A stretch of 58,155 bases of DNA, counting the filler, from Basidiobolus ranarum (taxonomy: Eukaryota): assembly GCA_040143965.1 (NCBI GenBank). It is 4 parts of 4 records of this genome, joined end to end, with 100 filler letters (N's around TTAATTAATTAA, not from the genome) between each part and the next. Parts side by side here need not be neighbours in the genome. Positions count along the whole stretch, not along the records: positions 1 to 14,494 come from JASJQH010000422.1; 3 more parts are not named here. One strand, written 5' to 3'. Positions within the stretch are counted from its first letter, which is position 1. Every line of letters starts with the position of its first letter. The notes beneath the pieces were generated by a model. It saw only the letters and a program-made list of their open reading frames with translations. It was not told the DNA's origin and searched no databases. The position numbers were made by a program, and so were the translations under genes. Below are positions 1-43,710 of the stretch, piece by piece.

Positions 1-491
1 CTGGATCAAACTTTGATCTGATGGGATATTCAGATGCAAATTGGGGAAGAGATATTGAAGACAGGAGATCTACAACAGGATACTTATTTCTTTGCTGTAA
101 TGGAGCTATTTCTTGGAATTCAAAGAAACAACCTACCGTAGCACTTTCAACAACTGAAGCTGAATACATGGCTGCCTGTGAAGCAACAAAAGAAGCAATA
201 TGGTTAAGAAAACTCTTAACAGATTTGGGTTATTTTCAAAATTCACCTACTACATTATTTCAAGGCAATCAAAGTTGTATCAAATTAACTAAAAATCCCA
301 TGTTTCATAATAGAAGCAAACACATATATATTAAGCATCATTTCATTAGAGAGACTATAGAGAAAAAGTGTATTGACTTAACTTATTGTTCTACAGAAGA
401 CATGATTGCTGATATATTAACCAAACCATTAGCTAGACAGAAATTTGAGAAATTTAGACCTTTATTAGGATTAGTTTATATGACTATTTAG
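1..491 (+). mobile_element. Ty1/copia retrotransposon pol, C-terminal RNase H domain (5'-truncated by contig start)
   Basis: GYSDANWG..RRSTTGY..GAISW.SKKQ.TVALSTTEAEY..KHI..HFIR..ADILTKPL motifs typical of copia RNase H. Followed directly by a polypurine tract and an LTR. The usual DNQS Asp reads GNQS. Confidence 0.95.
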
Positions 492-493
492 TT

Positions 494-502
494 GAGGGAG
501 AG
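494..502 (+). other. Polypurine tract of the copia element
   Basis: GAGGGAGAG lies between the pol stop codon and the TGTTG start of the 3' LTR. Confidence 0.85.
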
Positions 503-850
503 TGTTGAAATTAGCATTGCCTAAACACCTATATAGTCATATATAGCTTAGTACTTAGTTATCTTATAATTCACTAAGATATTATCAATTATTCTCAATT
601 GGAATTTACTTAGAATATTTTTACCAACTTAGAAGTTCTCAGATATATAGATTTTTCAAACTTGTGCTAGAAGCCCCAAACTTTGCACACATGTTCCTGG
701 GACCTTTCTTAACATATTCTACATGTTAGTTTGTTTACATCTTGACAAAACTATAAATGTCAACTTTCTACTCAATAAATCAATAAGTGAAAACCATCAA
801 TTCCTCTAATTCTCCAAACCACTTCCAACAGGCTCCCAAATACTTTAACA
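503..850 (+). repeat. 3' LTR of the copia element (348 bp, TGTTGAA...TTTAACA)
   Basis: TG...CA termini with short inverted ends, internal TATAAA and AATAAA. Near-identical to the copies at 40894 and 52782. Confidence 0.93.
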
Positions 851-1168
851 GTTTGCCCATATAGCTTACTATTGAATTATTCCAGATTTCACCATGATAT
901 CACCCATTTTTCTCATAAGGAATTAGCCTAGAATATTTTTACCTACTTGAAAGTTCTCAGACATGATTTTTCAGATTTGTGCTAGAAGTCCCAAACTTTT
1001 GCACATGCGTTCCTGGGATCTTTCTTAACATACTCTACAGGTTAGTTTGCTAATATCTTGACAAAACTATAAATGTCAACTTTTAACTCAATACATCAGT
1101 AAGTGAAAACCACCAATTTCTCTATTTTCTCCAAACCACTTCCATCAGGCTCCCAAAATACTTTAACA
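851..1168 (+). repeat. Older 5'-truncated LTR copy of the same family
   Basis: Collinear with 503-850 from about LTR nt 35 to the TTTAACA end, with substitutions. Confidence 0.85.
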
Positions 1169-1477
1169 GCCTAAACATTTATATAGCAATATATAACTTA
1201 GTACTTGGCTACTCCATATTTCACTGAGATATTACCCACTATACTCAAGAGGAATTCACTTGGAAGTTCCAAGATATATAGATTTTTAAAACTAGTCTTA
1301 GAAGCCCACTTCTCACAAATGTTTCTGGAACCTTTCTTGACACATTTACATGTTTGTTTGCTTGCCTCCTGACGAAACTATAAATATCAACTTTCTACTC
1401 AATCAATTAATAAGTAAAATCATCTATTCTACTAGTTCTCCAAATCACTGTCAGCAAACTCTCAAAATACCTCAACA
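1169..1477 (+). repeat. Third, more diverged 5'-truncated LTR copy
   Basis: Starts GCCTAAACA (about LTR nt 17) and ends CTCAACA; collinear with the LTR. Confidence 0.8.
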
Positions 1478-1582
1478 CTTTATTGGGTTCTAGTAGAATT
1501 TTATACTTTTGTCAAGCAGTAGATAAACTAACGTAGCCAGCTATATGAATATATGGATGATTAAGCTAAGCCATTTTCAGCA
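1478..1582 (-). repeat. Degenerate, internally deleted LTR fragment in reverse orientation
   Basis: tttatacttttgtcaag..gtagataaa and gctatatga..ttttcagca match the minus-strand LTR at 25478-25768. Confidence 0.6.
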
Positions 1583-3939
1583 AAATAGGCATATGCAGAT
1601 TTCCAAAATGTAAAACACAAAAATTTCAACCCCTTCTCTCTTACTTTCCATGTGCCAGATTATATTGTCTGTATATCATGCATACATGGGCATTACATTT
1701 TGTTTAATAGGTATATGAGCCTATCATGCTCTCTTCTAACTTTTACAAACATTTTAATATTTACAACTATTTTGGGTATTGGAGTGAATCAGAAGTTCTT
1801 AGGACAATTGAAAGAAGTACATAACGCACATGTTATTGTATTGAATTAAAAGCTATTAATGATACTTTTGTAGGAAATGAAGAAAGATAATTGCGGGTAT
1901 AAGTTTCCAGGATGTCTATGAAGTTGGGGTTTAAGTTTGGAGAGTTTTGATCTAGCTTAAAAATTTCCATCTCTGCGGAATATTTCGGATATGTTCACTA
2001 TATGTGACAATTTAGACTTGAGTAGTAATAACTGAGTGAACATTGACTATGCAAAAAATAATATAGGAATAATAGGGTGCCCAACTCTAATATTTCAAAA
2101 GTAACACGCATCACTCCTTTAAACTTGAAGCTTAAATATTGGAACTCATTGCTAATCCATTAAAATCTCAAAACCAAATCATAGTCAGGTTTAGTTGAAT
2201 TACTTAGTTAACCACCATGTATAAAAAGCAACAAGCCCTCAACCATAGCCGAATCAGGTGCATAATCACTACCAGCACTCCACATCATGAAAGATACCAT
2301 ACCAGATCCAATCTCTGCAGTCAAGTCTGAAATAGTGGCTGCGAATCAGCAAGTTTGATTGATTGCTGATATTTGATATTAAGGGTGAATTTAAAACATT
2401 CAAAACTATTAGAAATGATTTGTGATATAGTATTGCTCTAAGAAGGTCAAGTATTGGCAGAAAAACCCGATCCATCACTACGAAAATTTGAGATTTGCGA
2501 TCAGTTGATGTAGCAGCTAAGTATGCTCAATTATTCATCGATCCACTCCCTATTGCTCTCACCAAGTATCTTAAATATATCTATATTTGGATTAAGTTTC
2601 CCAATGCATAACAAACCAAATGTATCTCCTATTGCAATTCTAAGAAAGGCTGAGTGATTTTAATACTGTTCGTACCACTTTCAATTCATCCCAACTACCA
2701 GCAACAATAACCTTGGTATCTTCTATGGCCTATCGATAGTATATGAATTGATAGGTATGCATACCAATATGATTCAAACTTTCCTGAGATGGTCAATACT
2801 AAATACAATATCAGATTTATATAAATCAAGCCCTCAAGTGGTGGCTTGGCTCTGAACTGCTTTTATTTACACAAGGATAGTGTCACTAAGAGGCGTCTTC
2901 ACAGTCTCACGATGTAAGAAGTACAAATTAAGCAGTAATATGAATTGTGAAATCGATTTGCAAATAAGATTCTCTCAGCAATTGACAGTTTTTTTACAAA
3001 GGAGACACGTTTCTATGACAATCCCCAATTTTAGACTGAGAAATCGACTACTAGATTTGGTTAAACAATAGATAATTATTGGGCATATATGAGTCTCCTT
3101 GTATCAAGTAAACTTACCTTTTTCTTGACTTCGTATCATTAGTATATTAGACTCTTAGTACCAGTCGTTTGATCTCTGTCCCAGAAGAATGTGTCAGTTT
3201 AACGTACTCTTTAGGCTTAGAATGGATTTCAATATTTGTAGCTTTTACCTTTTATCTTGTGACATGATAAAGTATATTATATATACCATTATAAAGCTCA
3301 TCGAAATACTATACCATTCGTGACTAATATTCGCCCATCTAAGCTATCTTCAATTTCATTTATTTGGTGGCGAAACTGATCTCCTATAACAAGTTCACTG
3401 ATTGAAATAATTACTATGAAGGAAGTTAGGGAAATAAGGTACCTTTTTATTTCCACGTTGCTCTCAGTCTTCCTATTCAATGTCCATATACTTCGCTCGA
3501 ATTGGACTTGACTTTCATCAGAAAGAAAATAGCACAATTTAAAGTGCACTTGAGCTAATTTAATACATTGATAATTATCGCAATCACCGTACCGTCTATT
3601 GATTCCCTCGCGAAAATGAACCGAGTTATTAAACCGGTAAAAACCAGTACCCCAAGCGAAGGTATGATTGATTTGTTTCATGCTGGTCATTATTCTCCCC
3701 ACTTAATCGCATTCTACATATCAAACTAATCCGGAAATGATTTAGTAAACAAGCTTATAAACAACCTAGATGGGAATAAATCTTCAAATCTATCAAGAAA
3801 TCTACACGTGTAACAAACGTTATAGTGATTAAATTCTACGTCATTTACCTTCGTCAATAACGATTTATATTATCTGAATTGACTGATCAACAGATACCGA
3901 TATTAAACTTTATCTCCAGAAATTGTGAAAAATCACTTG

Positions 3940-5419
3940 ATCAGATAAAAAAAGATCGATTCCATGAAAATTCTTATATTTTTAAATTAAGCAATATATA
4001 AATGTAAATGCTACATTTCGTGCATGTTACACCATCTACAGTGCTGGAATTCCTCGTAGAATTAAACTCCTACATTACAGTCAGTTGACTACTCTATATT
4101 GGAATTTCGTGATGTGACCAGATCTTCACGAAAGGAGTACAATCAATCTTTTGTTTGACATTTTATATTGATTGACTTTGTAGGGAGCTAAAGGTGGCCA
4201 ATTACGTCCAATCTGACGAGAACAACGTCTTAAAAACCTGTTGCATTGGAAGTTCCAACTACTCTTTGTTGTATATTTACGCTATTCCTATTTCAAATTT
4301 GTGGTAAATTTTAGGCCCCTACTAATTTCAGTAGTTCAGCAATTCGAAATTCTTTTCACAACCTTACCCAGATTTGTTTGGGGCCTCGAATAGTTTTTCA
4401 TATAGTAACTCAATAACAGTAACCATTTTTTTTCACCGCTATCAGATCTTTCCAAATAGAACTTACAAGGGTTCCATGGTTAAGTACCTTTCCTTAAAAT
4501 TTATCTGATAATTTTGCAGATTCAACCCCGCGCAATTTCTCTTGAGAATGTCATGCTGATGCTATTACTATTTAGGTATATACAAGTTACAAGTTGATTT
4601 CGAATCTTGGTGATTGTATTTTCTAGCAACTTCATAATATGACTAGTTACCATGGAACTCTAGAGAATGCTCCAACAAACTTCAACCACTACTTCGCTAC
4701 TAGTAGAGCAGTAGAGGAATGACTCTAGATGCCCCATAAGAATGTGGGAACTATGAATTTACTATATATGAGTGTGACGCCAACTAAACCTATCACATTC
4801 TACTTATCAGATTCCTCATCACCCCATATTATATCCAGCAGAGGGTTTACCCGGTGGAAAATGGAATCCTGTAGTACGAGTATTTCCTTTTAATATGAGT
4901 AGCCCCATATAAAAATGCATCGCATGCTCTATGCGGCAATCGGAACACCTAAAAATTGGCGCAAAAATGTAGCTAACGGTATCATGAAAGGCCTAATTAG
5001 AATATACTTAGAGAAGTAAATGCATTCCACTCCAACATCTAAATATCAATAATATTAACAGTAAGAATTAAATGAGCTCAAACTTTAGTAGCTTGCCTAA
5101 GTGGAAAGAATGTAGCTTACAACATTCAAGGCATTAATCGCGATCTTTGCCTATTACGAATTTTTCAAATTCCGTTCATCATTATTTATCAGATGAAGTG
5201 AGCTGTACTTAATCATCAATAGTGCACGCTGATTGGCACTGTCATGTTTGTACTACGTCACAAGTAAAATCAGATAACCTGGACCTCTCTATTTTTCTAT
5301 CTGATGGAATAATTTTTAGCGATCTGATTAGGTAGTGATATGTAATTGGCTATTTCTCCCGAAAATCTAATGTCTGTGAAACAAAGCTATCCAACCATTG
5401 AGTGATGTATTTATCAGAT
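3940..5419. promoter_or_regulatory. Cluster of ATCWGATAA iron-responsive GATA repressor sites upstream of the heme oxygenase gene
   Basis: Perfect matches at 3940(+), 4501 (TTATCTGATAA, both strands), 4804(-), 5186(-), 5269(+), 5411(-); near match at 5297. Reverse CCAAT box near 5230 and TATAAAA at 5708. Confidence 0.8.
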
Positions 5420-5844
5420 GGGAACTTTTAGATTTATAGAAATATACTATTCATCATTATAGTTAGTTTTAGTAGAGGAGTGAGACCATTCATTACTTTA
5501 TCCTTTTTAATTTCGCCTGTATAAGCGGATGAAGCGACACATGTTTTCAACAGAAACTCTTCAGTTGTACGAATTGCCTTTAATGTCGCTTGACTCATGA
5601 CACTTCCATATCCAAAGGCTCTACCAATTACAAATTATTTATTCTATAATTATTTGCATTTTCTCCCTCATTGATCTTATCCCTAATCCAGAAAGTGATT
5701 TGAAAACTATAAAATGAGGGGGTTTCGTCTCATGTTTTTCAATTGCTAAATACCTTTCACTTGATCAAATAACTATTGCTATTTGATCTTACCTGACTCT
5801 AACCCGTTCAATAACAATCGACTAAACTTAACTCGTAATAAATC

Positions 5845-8807
5845 ATGGCTCCGAAAGAGGTTGAAGGACTGGGAAATGTTTATGAAGATACCACTCAGTG
5901 TCCTGCATTTGAAAATGGCTGCCCTTATGCTGCCCTTACCGCTGAACTAGCCAATGTCCAAGCTACCGAACTTTGGTAATTTGACTATACCCTTTGACAG
6001 TTGAAAGTAGCCACTAACAATATTGACCTCTATATTACTATAGTCCTGCATTCAAAGAAGGTATAAATAATATCACGATACAAATATCGCCTTGAAATCC
6101 ATACTAAACACTAATCCTATTAGGTTGCCCATTTACAAACAAGAATTCGGAAGAAATCAAGGCATTATTGGAATCTATTCCCAAGTCTCATAAGCCTTGC
6201 CCCGCTTTTACTTCTGAAGGTATTTAACTTTCCCATACAGTTCGTTTCCATGGTTCAATTGTTGATCTATTGACTTTATATAGGCCAATCGAGCTTAAAT
6301 GCTTGCCCAGAGGGATTATCATTGTTTGAAGCTTTGAAAGAATTAAGAACTGACTTATTCTTACAAGAAGGTCAGTTATTCGAAAAATTCTATGTTTCTT
6401 CAATTTATACTCATATCCAATTTATGTTCAGACGCAGTAATTTTGGCAGAAGAGTTAAAGAATGGAACCCATTCTGTCCATCGACTAGCTGAGCGTTCCG
6501 TTTTTGTAAAGTATGTTGGTTGACTGTACTCATCAAATATATTCAATAATTTATTCATTCTTCTTAAAGGCGTTACATGAAAGCTGAGGTTGACAGAGAG
6601 ACGTATAAGAAGTTCATGGTATCTTTATACTTTGTTTACTCGTAAGTTCATAAATATCTTATGATGAAGCGAATATCCAAAGTTAATATGTCACATGAAT
6701 TTTTAGTGCTTTGGAAGAAGCACTTGGAAACAACGCGGGAGATGCTAGAGTTTCACTCATTCATTTTCCAAAGGAATTGGAAAGGAAGAATTCCTTGATC
6801 GCTGGTAAAATTTTCACTATAACTCCGGGGTTAATAGATCCCATGGCTGACTAAGCAAATTGTAGATTTGAAGTATTTTGGTGTTGAGTCATTACACGAT
6901 CTGAAGGCTTCTCCTGCCGTTCAAAATTACATAAATGTGATCAATGACGCAGCACAAAACAATCCCGCTCTATTGATTGCTCACAGTTATACAAGATATC
7001 TTGGGGATCTCTCAGGTGGTCAGATTCTCTCCAAGAGAATCAAGAAGTCCTTGAATTTGTCTGGTGACGAAGGCACTAAATTCTATAACTTCAACCATAT
7101 TGAAGATCTTAAGGAATTCAAAAATATGTACCGTGACAGGCTTAACCAGATAAACGTCAATAAGGAGACCAAAGGTAAGAAATGGTGGAAAGAGATGCAA
7201 GGGGAATGTAAATATGATACTAACCACGATTACTTCAGATCAAATCGTTAAAGAAGCCATTCGTTCTTTCGAGTTGAATATTGATATGTTTGCTGAGTTT
7301 GATCATGTCGTAACTGCTCCTGTTGTCAATGGTATGTGTAATTTACTATTGGTGCATTTCGTTTCAGTATGAGTTCTAATGTGTGATCCTGTGTTTAGAA
7401 CAAGCTTCTCTTGCCAAATTAATGAGAGAAGGAACACACACTGTCCATCGTCTTGCGGAAAGCTCAACCTTCATTAAGCAGTATATGCGTGGCCATGTTA
7501 CAGCAGAAGTTTACGGCCAGTTCTTGATCTCCCTTTATCATGTCTATAAAGCTTTGGAAGAAGAGCTTCGCAAACAAGCTGCTGATGAGCGAATTGCTTT
7601 GATTCATTTTCCTAAGGAGTTGAGCAGAACTGAATCCCTGATCAAAGATTTGGAATTTTATAATGGCCCTGAATGGGCTTCTAATGCAGAACCTAGCCCA
7701 GCAACACTTAGATATGTTGAAGGGATCCGTGAAGCCTCTAAGCGTAACCCTGCATTGCTTGTGGCTCACAGTTATACCCGTTATTTAGGGGATTTATCTG
7801 GTGGACAGATTTTGGGAAAGAAGACCCAAAAATCCCTCAACCTGCCTCTTGATAATACTGGTATTCAGTTCTATACATTCAAGAACATTGATGACGTGAA
7901 TACATTCAAAAACATGTATCGCGAGAGACTTGATATGATTGAATCCGATGAAAAACTAAGAACTGAGATCATCACCGAGTGTATTCGTTCCTTTGAATAC
8001 AATATTGGCATTTTCTCGGAATTCGATCATACAGTCAAGGAGGAATCCAATGAAGAACCAGGTCTTGCAAACGCATTGAAACGTGGTACTATGGCTGTGC
8101 ATCGATTGGCTGAGAATTGCGTGTTCATTAAACGCTACATGAAGGGAGAGGTAGACAGAAAGTCGTACGGAAAGTTCCTCCTGTCTCTTTACTACGTGTA
8201 TATGACCTTGGAAGAGGAACTTCGTAAGAATGCATTGAACGAGCAAATATCTCTTATTCATTTCCCACAAGAACTTGAGAGAACCACCGCCATTATCAAG
8301 GATCTAGTATATTTCCACGGTCCTAACTGGAAAGAAAATGCTTCCCCCAGTCCCGCCACACAGTCTTACATGAAGGCAATCAAAGAGCTCGGAGAAAAGG
8401 ATCCTGTCATGCTTGTAGCCCACAGTTATACTCGTTATCTTGGTGACTTGTCAGGTGGCCAAATCCTTGCCAAGAAGATCCAGAAGAGTTTGAATTTACC
8501 AGAAACCGCTGGCACTCATTTCTATCAATTCCCTAGAATCAATGATATGAACGATTTCAAAAATTTCTACAGAGAAAGATTGAACGCTATCACCGTTGAT
8601 CAAAAAACCAAAGAAGCATTGGTTGCTGAAGCAGGACGTGCTTTTGAACTCAACATTTCCATATTTTCCGAACTTGATGTTGTAACAGTTAAAGAGGAAA
8701 ACAAATTGGAATTTGGCAACGTGGTTCTTGTTCTCGCCTGGGTTGTACTTATTATCTCGTATTTGTACAAATTTGGCTACTTGAACGGTTTGTCAACCCT
8801 TTTTTAA
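5845..8807 (+). CDS. Triple-domain heme oxygenase with N-terminal Cys-Pro repeats and C-terminal TM anchor (~796 aa, 10 exons)
   Basis: Exons 5845-5975, 6044-6060, 6124-6219, 6284-6370, 6432-6510, 6570-6641, 6707-6804, 6866-7174, 7239-7331, 7399-8807; all GT-AG, frame preserved (2391 nt). Three copies each of VHRLAE, AHSYTRYLGDLSGGQ, FKNxYR and xFExNI. Hydrophobic tail VVLVLAWVVLIISYLY. Confidence 0.92.
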
Positions 8808-11702
8808 ATTCCACCTCTCTATGACTCAAAGTAACAATTTTGATTGTAAATGACTTTTCAAGTAACGCTTCCCTACCCCGAATCTTCATATATGTATTTA
8901 AAAACTAATCATTAAAGTCAGGAAGTTTTCTGATCATCAGTAAAGTGCTTCATTGGAATTCTCTGAGCAAACTATCCAGCATCTACAAACAGTTTGCACA
9001 TTAATGATTACCCACTTACCCTAACTTCTTCATAAAACTCCATTAAATGTCAGAGAGATGCCATTATCTTGATGAACATAAATTTGAAATAAAGCTCTAC
9101 TTGGATTTCCGAACTAGTAAGAGATGTGTGTACTACTTGTAGGTGTAGATTTTAGTCATCATCATGCATGCATTATAGGTCATAGCTAATTTCTCACCTT
9201 TGGTCACAGTTGTGCCGGTACCTAATAGTGAAGGTAGTACTATAGAGGAGGAGATCGATGAAAGTGCTGTGAGGGTTATGTTTAATGAGAAAAAAGCACC
9301 AAAACTGATGTCCAGTAGTGGAAAAAAACCAAATGATATGAATGGAGGAACATACCTAACATATATGTTGTCAAGAAATATGGGCAAATATTGCCTCTTG
9401 ATATTTAAAATGAGACCACTCGGTAAAAACGAGACCTGACTCTAAATTCTACTTACTTTGGCGTAGTTCAATGAGTATAACGTGAATTAGCATAGTGGAC
9501 AGATTATATCATTCATTCTGCACTCTCAAGAGTGGATGGATTACTGTTGTTTGCAATAGTTTGAACATTTGCTCAAACAGGAAACTAAATCCATTCATAT
9601 ACTCGGATTAAAAGGTCCGCAAACACACATGAAAAATAACATTAATCAACAGTAGGTAACTGGGTCAACTCCCTAGAAATAAAGCACAGCATAAACGAGG
9701 AGTGATATTTAAAGTCACAAGCTTAATTGGAGTAGAGCTCGTATAAGAGAATTCGAAGTCGCTGCTATGCATCATAAACTGTTCATATTATCAGTTTTTT
9801 CATAATCTAGCAATATATATATGTGAGAGGACTACTGAAATCGAGTGGCTCAAGCCTATATGCGATCGATGTTTCTAGACAGCACTTGCTTACGTAAAGC
9901 TGATATAAATGGAACTTCGTCACACATATTTCTCGTACACCAGTGACATCAAGAACCTGATGGAGCAATCATGACGTGGCACGGCCTCATGTCTAGCACT
10001 TCAATTCGCTAGAAACTCGAAGTTATTAAATAATAGGTAACTCCTACATTAGCCAAGCAACCATATATGATCCAGGGATAATAAAACGTGTTCAACCACT
10101 GGCTTTCACTAAAGTGCTGTCAGGGAAGAGAAAAACCGTTTGAAGCTTAACCCTTTAAAGGAGTTTCTATATATGTCTTCGATGTAGTTCCTAAAATGGT
10201 CAGATTACAATATATTCATTAAGTGCCTGCATGCAATTGGCTAGCATTGGGGAGCCGTTCAACGTGACTTAAGGACTCACCAGATTCAGTATGCTCATTT
10301 GAAGCAAAGAATCGCTTAAATATCAATGAAACAACTCCGCATGACATGTAAAGCAAGGGATAAGCAGCTACTCTTAATCTCTATCAAAAGTGTTGTTAGA
10401 GAACATATGGAATACCCATGTGTATGTTTATATATTCTACAGTTTAATATGGACACTATTTCATCTCCATCTTCCAGAAAAGTGGTAATGAATGGATTCA
10501 AATGATTTCTGAGAATTCGACTACTTTCTATATTAATCGTCCTAATTTGAATTTACACAAATCATTGATAGATATCAATATTTCCTAACGCTAATATTAT
10601 ATAAGCATTGTGAGTTCTCCCTAAAAGTTCCATATTGGCGCACTCAGCTCATCGTTATCTTTGTTGCGACTTGACATCTGATCTGCTTAGATAGCTCACG
10701 GGTCTATCTAAATATTCAGCAAAACTTGGGGCTAGACCAACGAAAGCCCTCACAATGGAAAAGTTGGGGGAAAGTAACCACTGACAAGCACACAGATCAC
10801 GCACAGACAATTGAGAAATGCAGTCTTCCGTTGCAACGTTAAGAACCAGTATTTCGATTTGGCATAGAAGTGAACTCTAGATCTGGATTACTATGAGCAT
10901 TGGCGATAATCTGCTCCAGGGAACAAACCAGAGAAGCATGATTTCCATTGGTTTTCCCTTTTTGGATAAATCCTCAGTACTTCATTTGTGCTAGGAAAGT
11001 CTGAGATTATATATAGCATCCCCACTATCCCCACTCCCATAGAACTCACAGTATCACAACCATTCAATTAATATCAAACATGCCTGTTTTGGTTAGGTCT
11101 CGAGAATTCTTGCACTAGCACACATAAGATACGGTGCAACAAAACCACCACTTGGTCTAATAAATGAATCATGGTAAGGTTGAATAGTCATTATTGCAGA
11201 TTTTATATTCCAGTGATCTTGAAATGTTCACTTCAAGCTCCAGTTTAAATATCCTCCTGATGCCAATGTATGTCGATATCTCAGATTAGATATTAGGAAT
11301 AATTAACTAACTAAAGAGCTTCTTAGCTTTGTAGCATTCATCAACCCTGACTCATATGAAACCTTTCACATCATATCCAACTTTTTGAGGTTTTCTCTAA
11401 TGTATATCTCTATCTTGGTTTCATTACTCGGATCCGATATACTCCAATAATTGGTGTTCAACCGATTTACAAACATAGCAAAAAACTCAAAGAATCCAGT
11501 TTGTGTTACATATACACTTGTGCGACATCGCCTGTGGAATGCAGGTTCACTCTAAGATCAGTTGCTTAGCAATCATGGCGATTATTCAATCCCCTGTAAC
11601 AACCCAGGTCAAAATCATTCAATATAATGCCAGCTTGACAATACCGCGTCTCTCTCAAGCTTATTCACCTTGTGTCGATTGAGCATAGCTATTATCGCAA
11701 GT

Positions 11703-13403
11703 ATGAAAGTACCAAAGTACAAAGCGCCAGTACCCGTCGATGAAGACGACAGAATCAAGGAATTGTTGAAATATAAAATTCTTGAAACAACGTCGGAAGA
11801 AATTTTCGACGATGCTACCACGCTTGCAGCCCAAATATGTGAAACTCCAGTAGCACTCATCAGTTTTCTTGCAACTGAGCGGTGTTTCTTCAAGTCACGA
11901 TATAACACGAACGGTGAACCTGCCGAAAGAGATGTAGCATTCTGCTCATATGTTGTTGCATCGAAAAATACTTTTATAGTAACTGATGCAACAACAGACC
12001 CAAGGTTTGTGGAAAATCCAAGCGTCTTAGCAGGCGAAATTCGATTTTATGCTGGCGCTCCTCTTACGACAAAATCCGGCCACGTATTAGGCTCATTATG
12101 TGTTATCGATACCAAGCCAAACAATCTTGATGTAAATCAGCAGAAAGCACTTGAGGTCCTTGCTCGTCATGTTGTTCGTTGTCTTGAACTAAGGCTACAT
12201 TCAATCACTTTAGATAAAGCAAAGAGCGAAACAAAAACCTTCTTTGCAAATGCTGAGGCAGAGAGGCAAACTTCAATAATGAAGACACAGTTTCTAGCAA
12301 ATATGAGTCATGAGATTCGAACTCCTATTCACGGCATTGTCGGTTGTCTGGAAATATTAAGGGGAACACCGTTGACAGAAGAACAAGCTCAGTTGTTGGA
12401 AACGATGCAAGAGAGTATTGATGGTATATCTCGATTGACTAATGACATTCTAGATATTTCCAAAATCGAAACTGAACAATTGACATTGGAGTCTACCACA
12501 TTCAATCCAGCCAAAGTCTTCGACTCAATCAGAAAAAGATTCCAGTTACTTGCTGCTCGAAAGCAATTGAACTTGAACATTTCCGTACCAGCTCAGTTAT
12601 CAAGGAAAGTTGTTGGGGACGCAGTTCGTTTTGACGAGATTATCAGTAATATTGTGAATAACGCCATCAAGTTTACTGAACATGGTTCAGTATCGGTTAT
12701 TGTGGAAGATCAATCTAATAATAATGCGGAGGTGATAATATTTATACAAGTTATCGATACTGGTATTGGTATTCCACCCAACAAGATGGATAGAGTATTT
12801 ACACGATTCAGCCAGGTTGACGAGTCTCACAAACGAAGGCATGGAGGCTCTGGATTGAGTCTATCAATAACCAAGTTTCTTGTCGAGAAGATGAATGGGA
12901 CCATTGGAGTCAAAAGTACTCTTGGAGAAGGAACGAAGTTTTGGATCGTTATGTCATTTGCTATTCCTGAAGAAAATTTACAAAAGCTAGATAATGATGA
13001 CAAATTGACCGCCTTGATAGTTGAAGATAATGCAATCAATCGCCAGGTGCTGTGTAAACAAATTTCATGCAGATTTAGCAACGTTCAATGTGTTGAGAAT
13101 GGATTACTTGCCGTCGAGGCTTGTAAAAAAACCAAATATTCGGTAATATTTATGGACTGCCAGATGCCTGTGATGGACGGATATGAAGCTACAACCGAAA
13201 TACGTAAATTCGACCTATGGACACCTATAATTGCAGTATCAGCAAACACAATTAAATCAGATATCGAACGATGTTTTCAAGTTGGTATGAACGCACACCT
13301 TTCCAAGCCGGTTAGACGAGATGATATTATGAAGTGTGTACATACTTGTCTAATGGCCAACACTGTTGAACCTAAGCAATATGGATGTGTATACAGCAAC
13401 TAA
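11703..13403 (+). CDS. Hybrid sensor histidine kinase GAF-HisKA-HATPase-REC (566 aa, intronless)
   Basis: GAF (APVPVDEDDRIKEL..FDDATTLAAQICETPVALIS..RFYAGAPL), H-box FLANMSHEIRTP, N-box NIVNNAIKFT, G1 DTGIGI, receiver VEDN..MDCQMPVMDG..SKP. First ATG in the ORF is at 11703. Confidence 0.93.
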   Translation: MKVPKYKAPVPVDEDDRIKELLKYKILETTSEEIFDDATTLAAQICETPVALISFLATERCFFKSRYNTNGEPAERDVAFCSYVVASKNTFIVTDATTDPRFVENPSVLAGEIRFYAGAPLTTKSGHVLGSLCVIDTKPNNLDVNQQKALEVLARHVVRCLELRLHSITLDKAKSETKTFFANAEAERQTSIMKTQFLANMSHEIRTPIHGIVGCLEILRGTPLTEEQAQLLETMQESIDGISRLTNDILDISKIETEQLTLESTTFNPAKVFDSIRKRFQLLAARKQLNLNISVPAQLSRKVVGDAVRFDEIISNIVNNAIKFTEHGSVSVIVEDQSNNNAEVIIFIQVIDTGIGIPPNKMDRVFTRFSQVDESHKRRHGGSGLSLSITKFLVEKMNGTIGVKSTLGEGTKFWIVMSFAIPEENLQKLDNDDKLTALIVEDNAINRQVLCKQISCRFSNVQCVENGLLAVEACKKTKYSVIFMDCQMPVMDGYEATTEIRKFDLWTPIIAVSANTIKSDIERCFQVGMNAHLSKPVRRDDIMKCVHTCLMANTVEPKQYGCVYSN

Positions 13404-14494
13404 TAGGAGATAGTCTAGAAGTTGGGCAGGCACTTGCTTGCTTGTAATGTAAGAAAACAGTTATTTGTACAAACAGTCGCTAATCAGGATAGGAATTCTC
13501 ATACTTTTCTAATTAACTTCCTACCATAATAAATATTCTAACCATGAAGCCATATATCCGTAGAGTTATTAGCAGTGCTTGAAATGTGATGCAAGTCGGA
13601 GGCAAGATCAGCAACCGAATCCTTGGCGATCAGTTAGATAAAGTGTCACAAAGTAGGATCTATTAATGATAATCCGTTGGGATTAGGTGCGATAAAAGCC
13701 CCAAATAGATATACTTGACTTTGATAAATTTTAATCTAATACAGTTACATTTAAGATAATAATTTCCGAATAACACTTGGTACATCGGATCCTATGCCGA
13801 TAAGTAGCAATTTAGTCAGTCTCCGAAGTTGTAAGCATTATATTGAGCGGGAAAGGTGACAAGCATAGAGGAAACAAAAGTGAATACACCATATTATTGA
13901 TATGAGGTAAAATTGATGCTTTAGAAGCAAGACAATTATGGCCACAGATTAACACATAGTCCTCAGTAATATGATTGGCTTTTTTAGATCTTAAGTTGAA
14001 TATTGGGGAAATTAGGACTTGGTGGAGGATTTTCACACACTAAGTTCTTATCTTTAGTTTAATCCACACACATTCATATATTTTCTGATTTACAGACAAG
14101 TGACACTTGACCAAATAATGTTAACTTGGATATGATGTAGAGAGTAGTTAGGTGAACTTAATTTAGCTTATCTAATATGCATAAAGTAACGCTTAGGATA
14201 CACTGCTTCTAGGCTAATGGTAAGAAAGCAAGTGATGTGGGTTTTAGGGTTAGGGGGAGACAGTCACCAACAGGTGAAATCTTTATTTCAAACAAAACAA
14301 AGAACCCATAACTACTTTTGTAGTTTCTTAACTAATGTATGGAGATCAGGAGTATTGGTATGAATGTTGCAAAGCAGAAAAGATAAGTCAGTAGAATCTA
14401 AGACACTATTAAGTGGAGTGGGAGGGAGTAACAAAGGTAAAATGGTTTGTCAACAATGGAAATTAGTGGAATGAGACTAGGATTAACATAAAGC

Positions 14495-14594
14495 NNNNNN
14501 NNNNNNNNNNNNNNNNNNNNNNNNNNNNNNNNNNNNNNTTAATTAATTAANNNNNNNNNNNNNNNNNNNNNNNNNNNNNNNNNNNNNNNNNNNN
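14495..14594. other. Artificial 100-nt contig linker (N44-TTAATTAATTAA-N44)
   Basis: N-run with a central 12-mer giving stop codons in all six frames; identical to the other two linkers. Confidence 0.97.
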
Positions 14595-29060: not shown

Positions 29061-29160
29061 NNNNNNNNNNNNNNNNNNNNNNNNNNNNNNNNNNNNNNNN
29101 NNNNTTAATTAATTAANNNNNNNNNNNNNNNNNNNNNNNNNNNNNNNNNNNNNNNNNNNN
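29061..29160. other. Artificial 100-nt contig linker
   Basis: N44-TTAATTAATTAA-N44. Confidence 0.97.
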
Positions 29161-43610: not shown

Positions 43611-43710
43611 NNNNNNNNNNNNNNNNNNNNNNNNNNNNNNNNNNNNNNNNNNNNTTAATTAATTAANNNNNNNNNNNNNNNNNNNNNNNNNNNNNNNNNN
43701 NNNNNNNNNN
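43611..43710. other. Artificial 100-nt contig linker
   Basis: N44-TTAATTAATTAA-N44. Confidence 0.97.

Follow-up and report, generated by a model that had tools for sequence, protein, structure and literature searches.

Three tandem heme oxygenase domains predicted in a single tail-anchored polypeptide of Basidiobolus ranarum

INTRODUCTION

Can one polypeptide carry three heme oxygenase (HO) domains, and would all three of them work? The question is raised by a gene of the fungus Basidiobolus ranarum that lies on the plus strand, at positions 5845 to 8807, of a 58,155-nucleotide stretch of DNA from assembly GCA_040143965.1 (the window, whose first part comes from JASJQH010000422.1). Textbooks and the structural literature present HO as an enzyme with one domain and one heme. 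A first-pass annotation, made from the DNA alone, had read the gene as three tandem and apparently intact HO domains on one polypeptide, and had suggested that the product may be a covalent trimer that breaks down heme at high capacity, or else a heme relay with only some of its domains docking cytochrome P450 reductase. If the three copies are diverged and apparently catalytic, why should the multiplicity reside in one chain rather than in more gene copies? Basidiobolus is an occasional pathogen that lives in the guts of amphibians and reptiles, and the gene may be part of heme-iron acquisition by the fungus.

Here we analyze the gene, its product and its relatives. We read it as encoding one tail-anchored protein of about 90 kDa (mass from length), in which a Cys-Pro module is followed by three canonical HO domains, and which would act as a three-site heme oxygenase. 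We put the probability of this reading at roughly 60%.

RESULTS

One open frame with three heme oxygenase domains and one anchor

The coding region runs from ATG to TAA through 10 exons and, spliced as derived from the DNA, gives an open frame of 796 amino acids (aa). All nine introns have GT..AG ends and are 59 to 68 nucleotides (nt) long; a CTRAY branch-site match lies 12 to 29 nt 5' of the acceptor in five of the nine, intron 9 included, and keeping any one of the nine leads to a premature stop or a frameshift. The translation is identical, letter for letter, to a database protein (P0001, KAK9764471.1) that is called "hypothetical protein K7432_007988 [Basidiobolus ranarum]" and has the UniRef name heme oxygenase (biliverdin-producing). 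The triple-HO gene is already deposited, without comment, in public databases. Since domains 2 and 3 share one continuous frame of 475 codons, with no stop, start or anchor between them, the DNA by itself establishes at least a two-domain enzyme, and no argument on splicing is needed. Domain 1, on the other hand, is cut by a stop-to-stop list of open reading frames (ORFs) into pieces of 58, 51, 137 and 72 aa.

The Pfam family PF01126 (Heme_oxygenase) matched three stretches of the protein (E 1.1e-197; 652.8 bits, with a cut-off of 23). Two stretches were found with exon 10 alone (E 1.8e-134; 446.4 bits) and one with exon 8 alone (E 2.6e-31; 109.5 bits). Table 1 shows the limits of the three domains, which were set with a hidden Markov model built from the three copies, together with the other features of the window. 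The ..VHRLAE helix occurs at aa 126, 343 and 561, the distal helix motif AHSYTRYLGDLSGGQ occurs at aa 232, 450 and 668, and FKNxYR and xFExNI each occur three times in the protein. The sole hydrophobic segment, aa 763-790, holds all eight of the best 19-residue hydropathy windows, and the N-terminus is hydrophilic. A single C-terminal transmembrane segment and no signal peptide would fit the pattern of eukaryotic HOs that are tail-anchored in the endoplasmic reticulum (ER).

Table 1. Features of the triple-HO gene and its surroundings, in positions of the window
Feature	Position	Strand	Remarks
Whole coding region	5845..8807	+	10 exons; stop TAA 8805-8807; translation equals GenBank KAK9764471.1
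Exons 1-5	5845-5975, 6044-6060, 6124-6219, 6284-6370, 6432-6510	+	derived from DNA
Exons 6-10	6570-6641, 6707-6804, 6866-7174, 7239-7331, 7399-8807	+	derived from DNA
Cys-Pro module, about 110 aa	5845..6370	+	exons 1-4 with introns 1-3; no Pfam family; low model confidence
HO domain 1 (aa 111-326)	6432..7327	+	exons 5-9, 4 internal introns; codon of proximal His127 at 6479-6481
Intron 9, 67 nt, phase 1	7332..7398	+	GTATGT..TAG; CTAAT 22 nt before acceptor; exactly on the boundary between domains 1 and 2
HO domain 2 (aa 328-545)	7399..8051	+	first part of intronless exon 10; codon of proximal His344 at 7446-7448
HO domain 3 (aa 546-763)	8052..8705	+	same open frame as domain 2; codon of proximal His562 at 8100-8102
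C-terminal hydrophobic helix, putative tail anchor (about aa 766-788)	8712..8780	+	hydropathy and structure model
GAF-HisKA-HATPase_c-receiver hybrid histidine kinase	11628-13400	+	intronless 591-codon frame, Pfam; 2.8 kb downstream of the HO gene

The structure predicted by AlphaFold2 from a 41-sequence alignment had a mean local confidence (pLDDT) of 84.8, and its three helical domains were mostly above 90. The pLDDT fell to about 60 to 66 at both joints, where linkers of about 10 to 15 residues were of low confidence, and residues 1 to 112 at the N-terminus were poorly predicted; a C-terminal helix was modeled at residues 769-785. In fold comparisons, domain 3 was superimposed on rat HO-1 (Z 34.6, root mean square deviation 0.9 A over 213 residues, 42% identity) and domain 2 on HmuO (Z 30.0). 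Domain 1 came up in a single row of the fold search, CT610 (Z 18.4), among matches listed at one row per entry.

The first-pass annotation thus stands on the anatomy of the protein: ten in-frame exons giving about 796 aa, the three PF01126 stretches that it expected, the quoted motifs of the proximal His helix, the distal helix, FKNxYR and xFExNI, and one C-terminal transmembrane anchor were all found, and its domain coordinates were close to those in Table 1. It had also recognized that the ORF track splits the gene and hides domain 1.

Conservation of the three catalytic cores

The catalytic cores were compared in an alignment of the six domains of two Basidiobolus species, B. ranarum and B. 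meristosporus, with 215 full-length single-domain HOs, in which 44 columns are at least 90% conserved. Each of the six domains retains 42 or 43 of the 44 columns. All of the columns with 100% conservation are retained in the six domains, namely the proximal His, R, D, H, RY, the distal G-D..G-G and FK..YR. The column that is His in all 215 single-domain HOs corresponds to H127, H344 and H562 of B. ranarum, and HMMER places H562 opposite chain residue 45 of human HO-2, which we take to be the heme ligand. Alpha-cleavage is set by the basic residues of FK..YR, which hold the heme propionates in place. Conservative deviations at conserved columns are a change of Phe to Tyr in all six domains, a change of Gly to Ala in domain 1 of both species and a change of Leu to Met in domain 3 of B. 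ranarum. The equal conservation of the three domains argues against a dead copy, in keeping with the apparent intactness claimed in the first-pass annotation. Judged from sequence, the three sites may simply add capacity or may have specialized.

Age and origin of the triplication

The three B. ranarum domains are 52 to 58% identical to one another in protein sequence, and their synonymous sites are saturated (pS 0.73-0.86). The DNA identity between the coding segments is 65 to 76%, even in the best-conserved stretches, and differing codons are used at 68 of the 93 columns that are identical in all three domains.

The orthologue in B. meristosporus CBS 931.73 (ORY02253.1, P0002; 818 aa) has the same module, three domains and tail, and Pfam found three PF01126 stretches in it. 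In the domain tree, domains 1, 2 and 3 pair one-to-one between the two species, with support of 99 to 100 and identities of 80 to 82%; the branch lengths are similar across the three orthologue pairs, and no copy is accelerated. Because the domains pair one-to-one between the species, both duplications predate the species split. The tree holding the six domains together was 2.45 log-likelihood units better (approximately unbiased test, p 0.64), and a triplication within the Basidiobolus lineage is favored, though not proven.

The phmmer search showed that single-domain fungal HOs align colinearly either with the N-terminal module plus domain 1 (for example, query 7-320) or with domain 3 plus the tail (query 548-792). 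These colinear alignments fit an internal amplification of the HO core in an ancestral gene for a module, an HO and an anchor. Most likely, such an ancestral fungal gene, with a Cys-Pro module, one HO and an anchor, had its HO core triplicated before the species split, and most likely every HO copy has since been held under purifying selection.

The intron layout of the B. ranarum gene is lopsided: domain 1 has four internal introns and one at its end, and domains 2 and 3 lie in one intronless exon of 1409 nt. This layout may reflect 3'-biased intron loss or a cDNA-mediated duplication.

The N-terminal Cys-Pro module

A module ahead of domain 1, absent from the first-pass annotation, contains six Cys-Pro dipeptides within aa 19-90, among them two CPAFxxGCP[YF] pairs. 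It has homologs in the N-terminal extensions that single-domain HOs carry in Syncephalis, Mucorales and others. In BLASTP searches it matched Syncephalis at E 5e-27 and Mucor at about 1e-19; at E <= 1e-3 it was matched by 85 of the 137 collected proteins that have an N-terminal extension of at least 40 aa. A motif of the CPAFxxGCP[YF] type is present in 60 of the 263 collected proteins. HOs with this module are found in early-diverging fungi and also in sea anemones, Balamuthia and some eukaryote transcripts.

The conservation of the module was seen only by BLASTP and MAFFT within the collected protein set. No Pfam family matched it at an E-value of 0.01 with the whole protein or 0.1 with single exons, the protein atlas gave no usable match, and a word-indexed search of residues 1-110 against shorter proteins returned 24 candidates, none of which scored.

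Single-domain relatives

Mammalian HO-1 (rat and human; PDB 1DVE and 1N3U, among others) resembles the B. ranarum protein in its fold, catalytic core, proximal His, distal G-D..G-G and C-terminal hydrophobic anchor. However, HO-1 has one catalytic domain per chain, while the B. ranarum protein has three in tandem and an N-terminal Cys-Pro module. Mammalian HO-2 (PDB 2Q32 and 2QPP) is the best sequence match among solved structures, at E 7.6e-56 to domain 3. It carries Cys-Pro motifs and is a single-domain protein. The Cys-Pro heme regulatory motifs of HO-2 form a thiol/disulfide switch, as stated in a passage of PMC2742820, and a passage of PMC11900463 places them at the proximal part of the C-terminus. 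The position of the motifs therefore differs: they are on the C-terminal side in HO-2, whereas the six dipeptides of B. ranarum are N-terminal to the first domain.

The HOs of early-diverging fungi (Syncephalis plumigaleata KAI8054366.1, Mucor, Apophysomyces and Bifiguratus) share the Cys-Pro module, the HO core and the C-terminal anchor with the B. ranarum protein, but have one HO domain in 370 to 440 aa where Basidiobolus has three. Both Pfam and phmmer bear out the single-domain state of the closest fungal relatives.

Other proteins with several heme oxygenase domains

A word-indexed search with domains 2 and 3 as the query gave 1670 matches, of which the best 120 were inspected. Among these 120, two or more HO matches were found in 27 proteins: the two Basidiobolus proteins and 25 fish models (P0003-P0027) from sharks, rays, a sawfish, eels, tarpon, bonytongues, elephantfishes, bowfin and a catfish, some of whose second domains are partial. 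A further protein, P0105, was left out of the count, its two matches being halves of one domain. An exhaustive phmmer search of 1.84 billion cluster representatives found 3335 proteins at E <= 0.001, and of the 150 that scored best, four had at least two full HO domains, namely P0001, the fish proteins P0007 and P0023, and P0121, which has four; in P0125 and P0187 the second HO match was only fragmentary. P0121 is 985 aa long and has one C-terminal hydrophobic tail, and its cluster mate is a protein of the chiton Liolophura sinensis (XP_064613781.1). The chiton-type protein (P0121 / P0264) is encoded uninterrupted on a 5028-nt contig, which would fit a transcript. Chitons mineralize iron in their teeth, and a link between these teeth and the four-domain HO may deserve a look.

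Like the B. ranarum protein, the chiton protein and the fish proteins ("heme oxygenase 1a", two to three domains) end in one C-terminal hydrophobic tail that follows several full HO domains. Unlike it, they have no N-terminal Cys-Pro module in the sequences inspected. They are also database predictions only. The identity between repeats within a protein is 62 to 76% in the chiton and 89 to 99% in the fishes, compared with the 52 to 58% of B. ranarum. In the trees, the chiton domains (100/100) and the fish domains each cluster in their own lineage among the animal rows, and the Basidiobolus domains stand beside Mortierella and Mucorales rows, inside the fungal clade with support of 99 and less resolved in a second tree. 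We considered whether the fish, chiton and Basidiobolus multi-HO proteins form one homologous family and rejected this, as their domains cluster by lineage. Judged from these sequences, the multi-HO layout is convergent and rare, arose at least three times, and is oldest and most diverged in Basidiobolus.

The repeats of the fish HO-1a proteins cluster by species, which suggests that they evolved in concert or were duplicated recently and more than once. Given how widely the fish taxa are spread, one may also ask whether the HO-1 of early jawed vertebrates was multi-domain.

The first-pass annotation knew of no characterized example of such a protein. As far as the literature goes this has stood: full-text searches, whose scope excludes about 1.7 million PubMed Central articles and subscription journals, gave no description of a multi-domain HO and no paper on the chiton or fish multi-HO proteins. 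Judged by their titles and by passages of PMC9670544, none of the papers that name both "Basidiobolus" and "heme oxygenase" treats this gene. The layout itself is not unique, however, as it is present in GenBank and UniRef for two Basidiobolus species, and predictions of it exist for a chiton, for cartilaginous fishes and for early-branching ray-finned fishes.

DISCUSSION

A three-site enzyme

In the mechanism that we propose, the protein would sit in the ER membrane and face the cytosol. Each domain would bind one heme through His127, His344 or His562, would take electrons from NADPH-cytochrome P450 reductase and would open the heme to biliverdin, CO and iron, so that each anchored molecule would have three catalytic sites. 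The N-terminal module, whose Cys-Pro motifs resemble heme regulatory motifs, would supply further sites for heme binding or redox switching, as has been described for HO-2. The likely role would be to detoxify heme and to recover iron in a gut habitat where iron is limited. The passages on iron in a paper on Basidiobolus secondary metabolism (PMC7466969) stress iron metabolism and siderophore expansion, and the word heme has no occurrence in that paper. A passage of PMC9670544 names heme oxygenase as a route of iron acquisition in Mucorales.

Alternative explanations

Several points weigh against a three-site enzyme. Its activity, its heme stoichiometry, the docking of the reductase and the topology in the membrane are predictions throughout. 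Domain 1 has Ala, in both species, at a column that is Gly in 93% of the family. The monophyly of the six Basidiobolus domains has moderate support (SH-like approximate likelihood ratio test, 85), and a free tree with added long-branch rows leaves it unresolved. The fusion of domain 1 to domain 2 would depend on the splicing of intron 9: when this intron is retained, a stop follows after 13 codons (7370-7372) and the protein ends after domain 1, so that a domain 1-only isoform is conceivable. A search for short database proteins spanning this joint gave 16 candidates, none of which scored. The B. meristosporus model differs exactly here by a 22-aa insertion, and because the insertion sits at the joint, the annotation of that species is unsettled at this point. 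It could be proposed from these observations that the locus makes two products, or additional ones: the Cys-Pro module with domain 1, ending in the retained intron 9 or at an alternative acceptor at 7367, and domains 2 and 3 with the anchor. The intron lies exactly on the domain boundary, the alternative CAG acceptor at 7367 would meet the same stop, and the junction is itself predicted from DNA. However, intron 9 resembles its eight neighbors in size, donor (GTATGT), branch site (CTAAT) and acceptor (TAG), and neither AATAAA nor ATTAAA occurs in 7300-7420. The spacer between the stop at 7370-7372 and the first in-frame ATG of domain 2 is only about 50 nt, and this ATG lies 7 codons before the proximal His, so that domain 2 would lose about half of its first helix (aa 332-348); domain 1 would be left without a membrane anchor. 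In B. meristosporus, the extra residues, at about 327-348, begin with Gly, as a read-through GT donor would give, and are probably an unspliced in-frame intron of 66 nt that was left in the annotation. As these 22 residues neither shift the frame nor bring in a stop at the joint, the fusion in that species does not depend on splicing. We consider two products quite unlikely, and a single polypeptide carrying all three domains very probable. Still less can be said for the idea that single-domain genes of a tandem array were wrongly merged. The window consists of pieces of about 14.5 kb joined by N runs, so the assembly is fragmented, but the nearest N run is far off, at 14495. The independently sequenced B. 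meristosporus has these three diverged domains too, in unchanged order, and no stop, start or anchor separates domains 2 and 3. A collapsed or expanded array, a possibility that the first-pass annotation had raised as a mis-assembly, is ruled out by the low DNA identity of the three coding segments, the saturated synonymous sites and the codon differences, and we regard such an artifact as close to impossible.

If one polypeptide is made, its work may still be divided, with only one or two domains turning over heme and the others acting as heme stores, buffers or sensors, or differing in cleavage regiospecificity or substrate. Such a division comes near the relay suggested in the first-pass annotation. 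The age of the domains, with their 52 to 58% identity, leaves room for divergence outside the conserved core, and the change of Gly to Ala in domain 1 has been kept in the lineage. Access for a membrane-bound reductase may also differ, since domain 3 adjoins the membrane and domain 1 is the farthest from it, and HO-2 is reported to bind and buffer heme in a passage of PMC8808069. On the other hand, the six domains retain every invariant column of the family, the FK..YR basic residues are kept in all three domains, and the orthologue pairs are so alike in identity and branch length that no copy appears relaxed. A division of labor is a possibility that we hold to be rather improbable, and three working sites remain our preferred reading. 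Speculative, and to our minds doubtful, is the view that the anciently diverged Basidiobolus copies, as one case of a recurrent convergent invention of several HOs on one tail anchor, form a cooperative or specialized multi-site machine with a heme-capturing Cys-Pro antenna. Such a machine could hand heme from site to site, could have sites that differ in affinity or could yield different cleavage isomers, and would thus do more than triple the dosage.

A three-site enzyme raises the questions of how a membrane-bound reductase serves sites at unequal distances from the membrane and whether the Cys-Pro motifs feed heme to several sites. It also offers an experimental system in which each domain could be knocked out by one His change, and it draws attention to parallel cases, in fishes and a chiton, that had gone unnoticed. 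The interest of the protein would grow if its sites cooperate or differ.

Surroundings of the gene

The region is AT-rich, with about 37% G+C. The four pieces of the window are joined at 14495-14594, 29061-29160 and 43611-43710, each junction having a pair of 44-base N runs, and the first of them holds the triple-HO gene, at a long distance from the junction that starts at 14495. None of 51 flanking ORF fragments, all 45 aa or longer and within 1-14494, had a Pfam match at E <= 0.001. An open frame at 3-491 (+), which runs off the window start and has no Pfam match at that threshold, looks like the C-terminal part of a copia-type retrotransposon polyprotein. Four further flanking ORFs were tested, and one was matched by Pfam, the hybrid histidine kinase of Table 1. 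We considered this kinase as a bilin sensor and rejected the idea: its GAF domain matches the diguanylate-cyclase GAF of 4ZMU (E 4e-24), and phytochromes match the kinase part only. Because the GAF domain resembles that of a diguanylate cyclase and not that of a phytochrome, no functional link to bilins was seen. The kinase looks bacterial-like.

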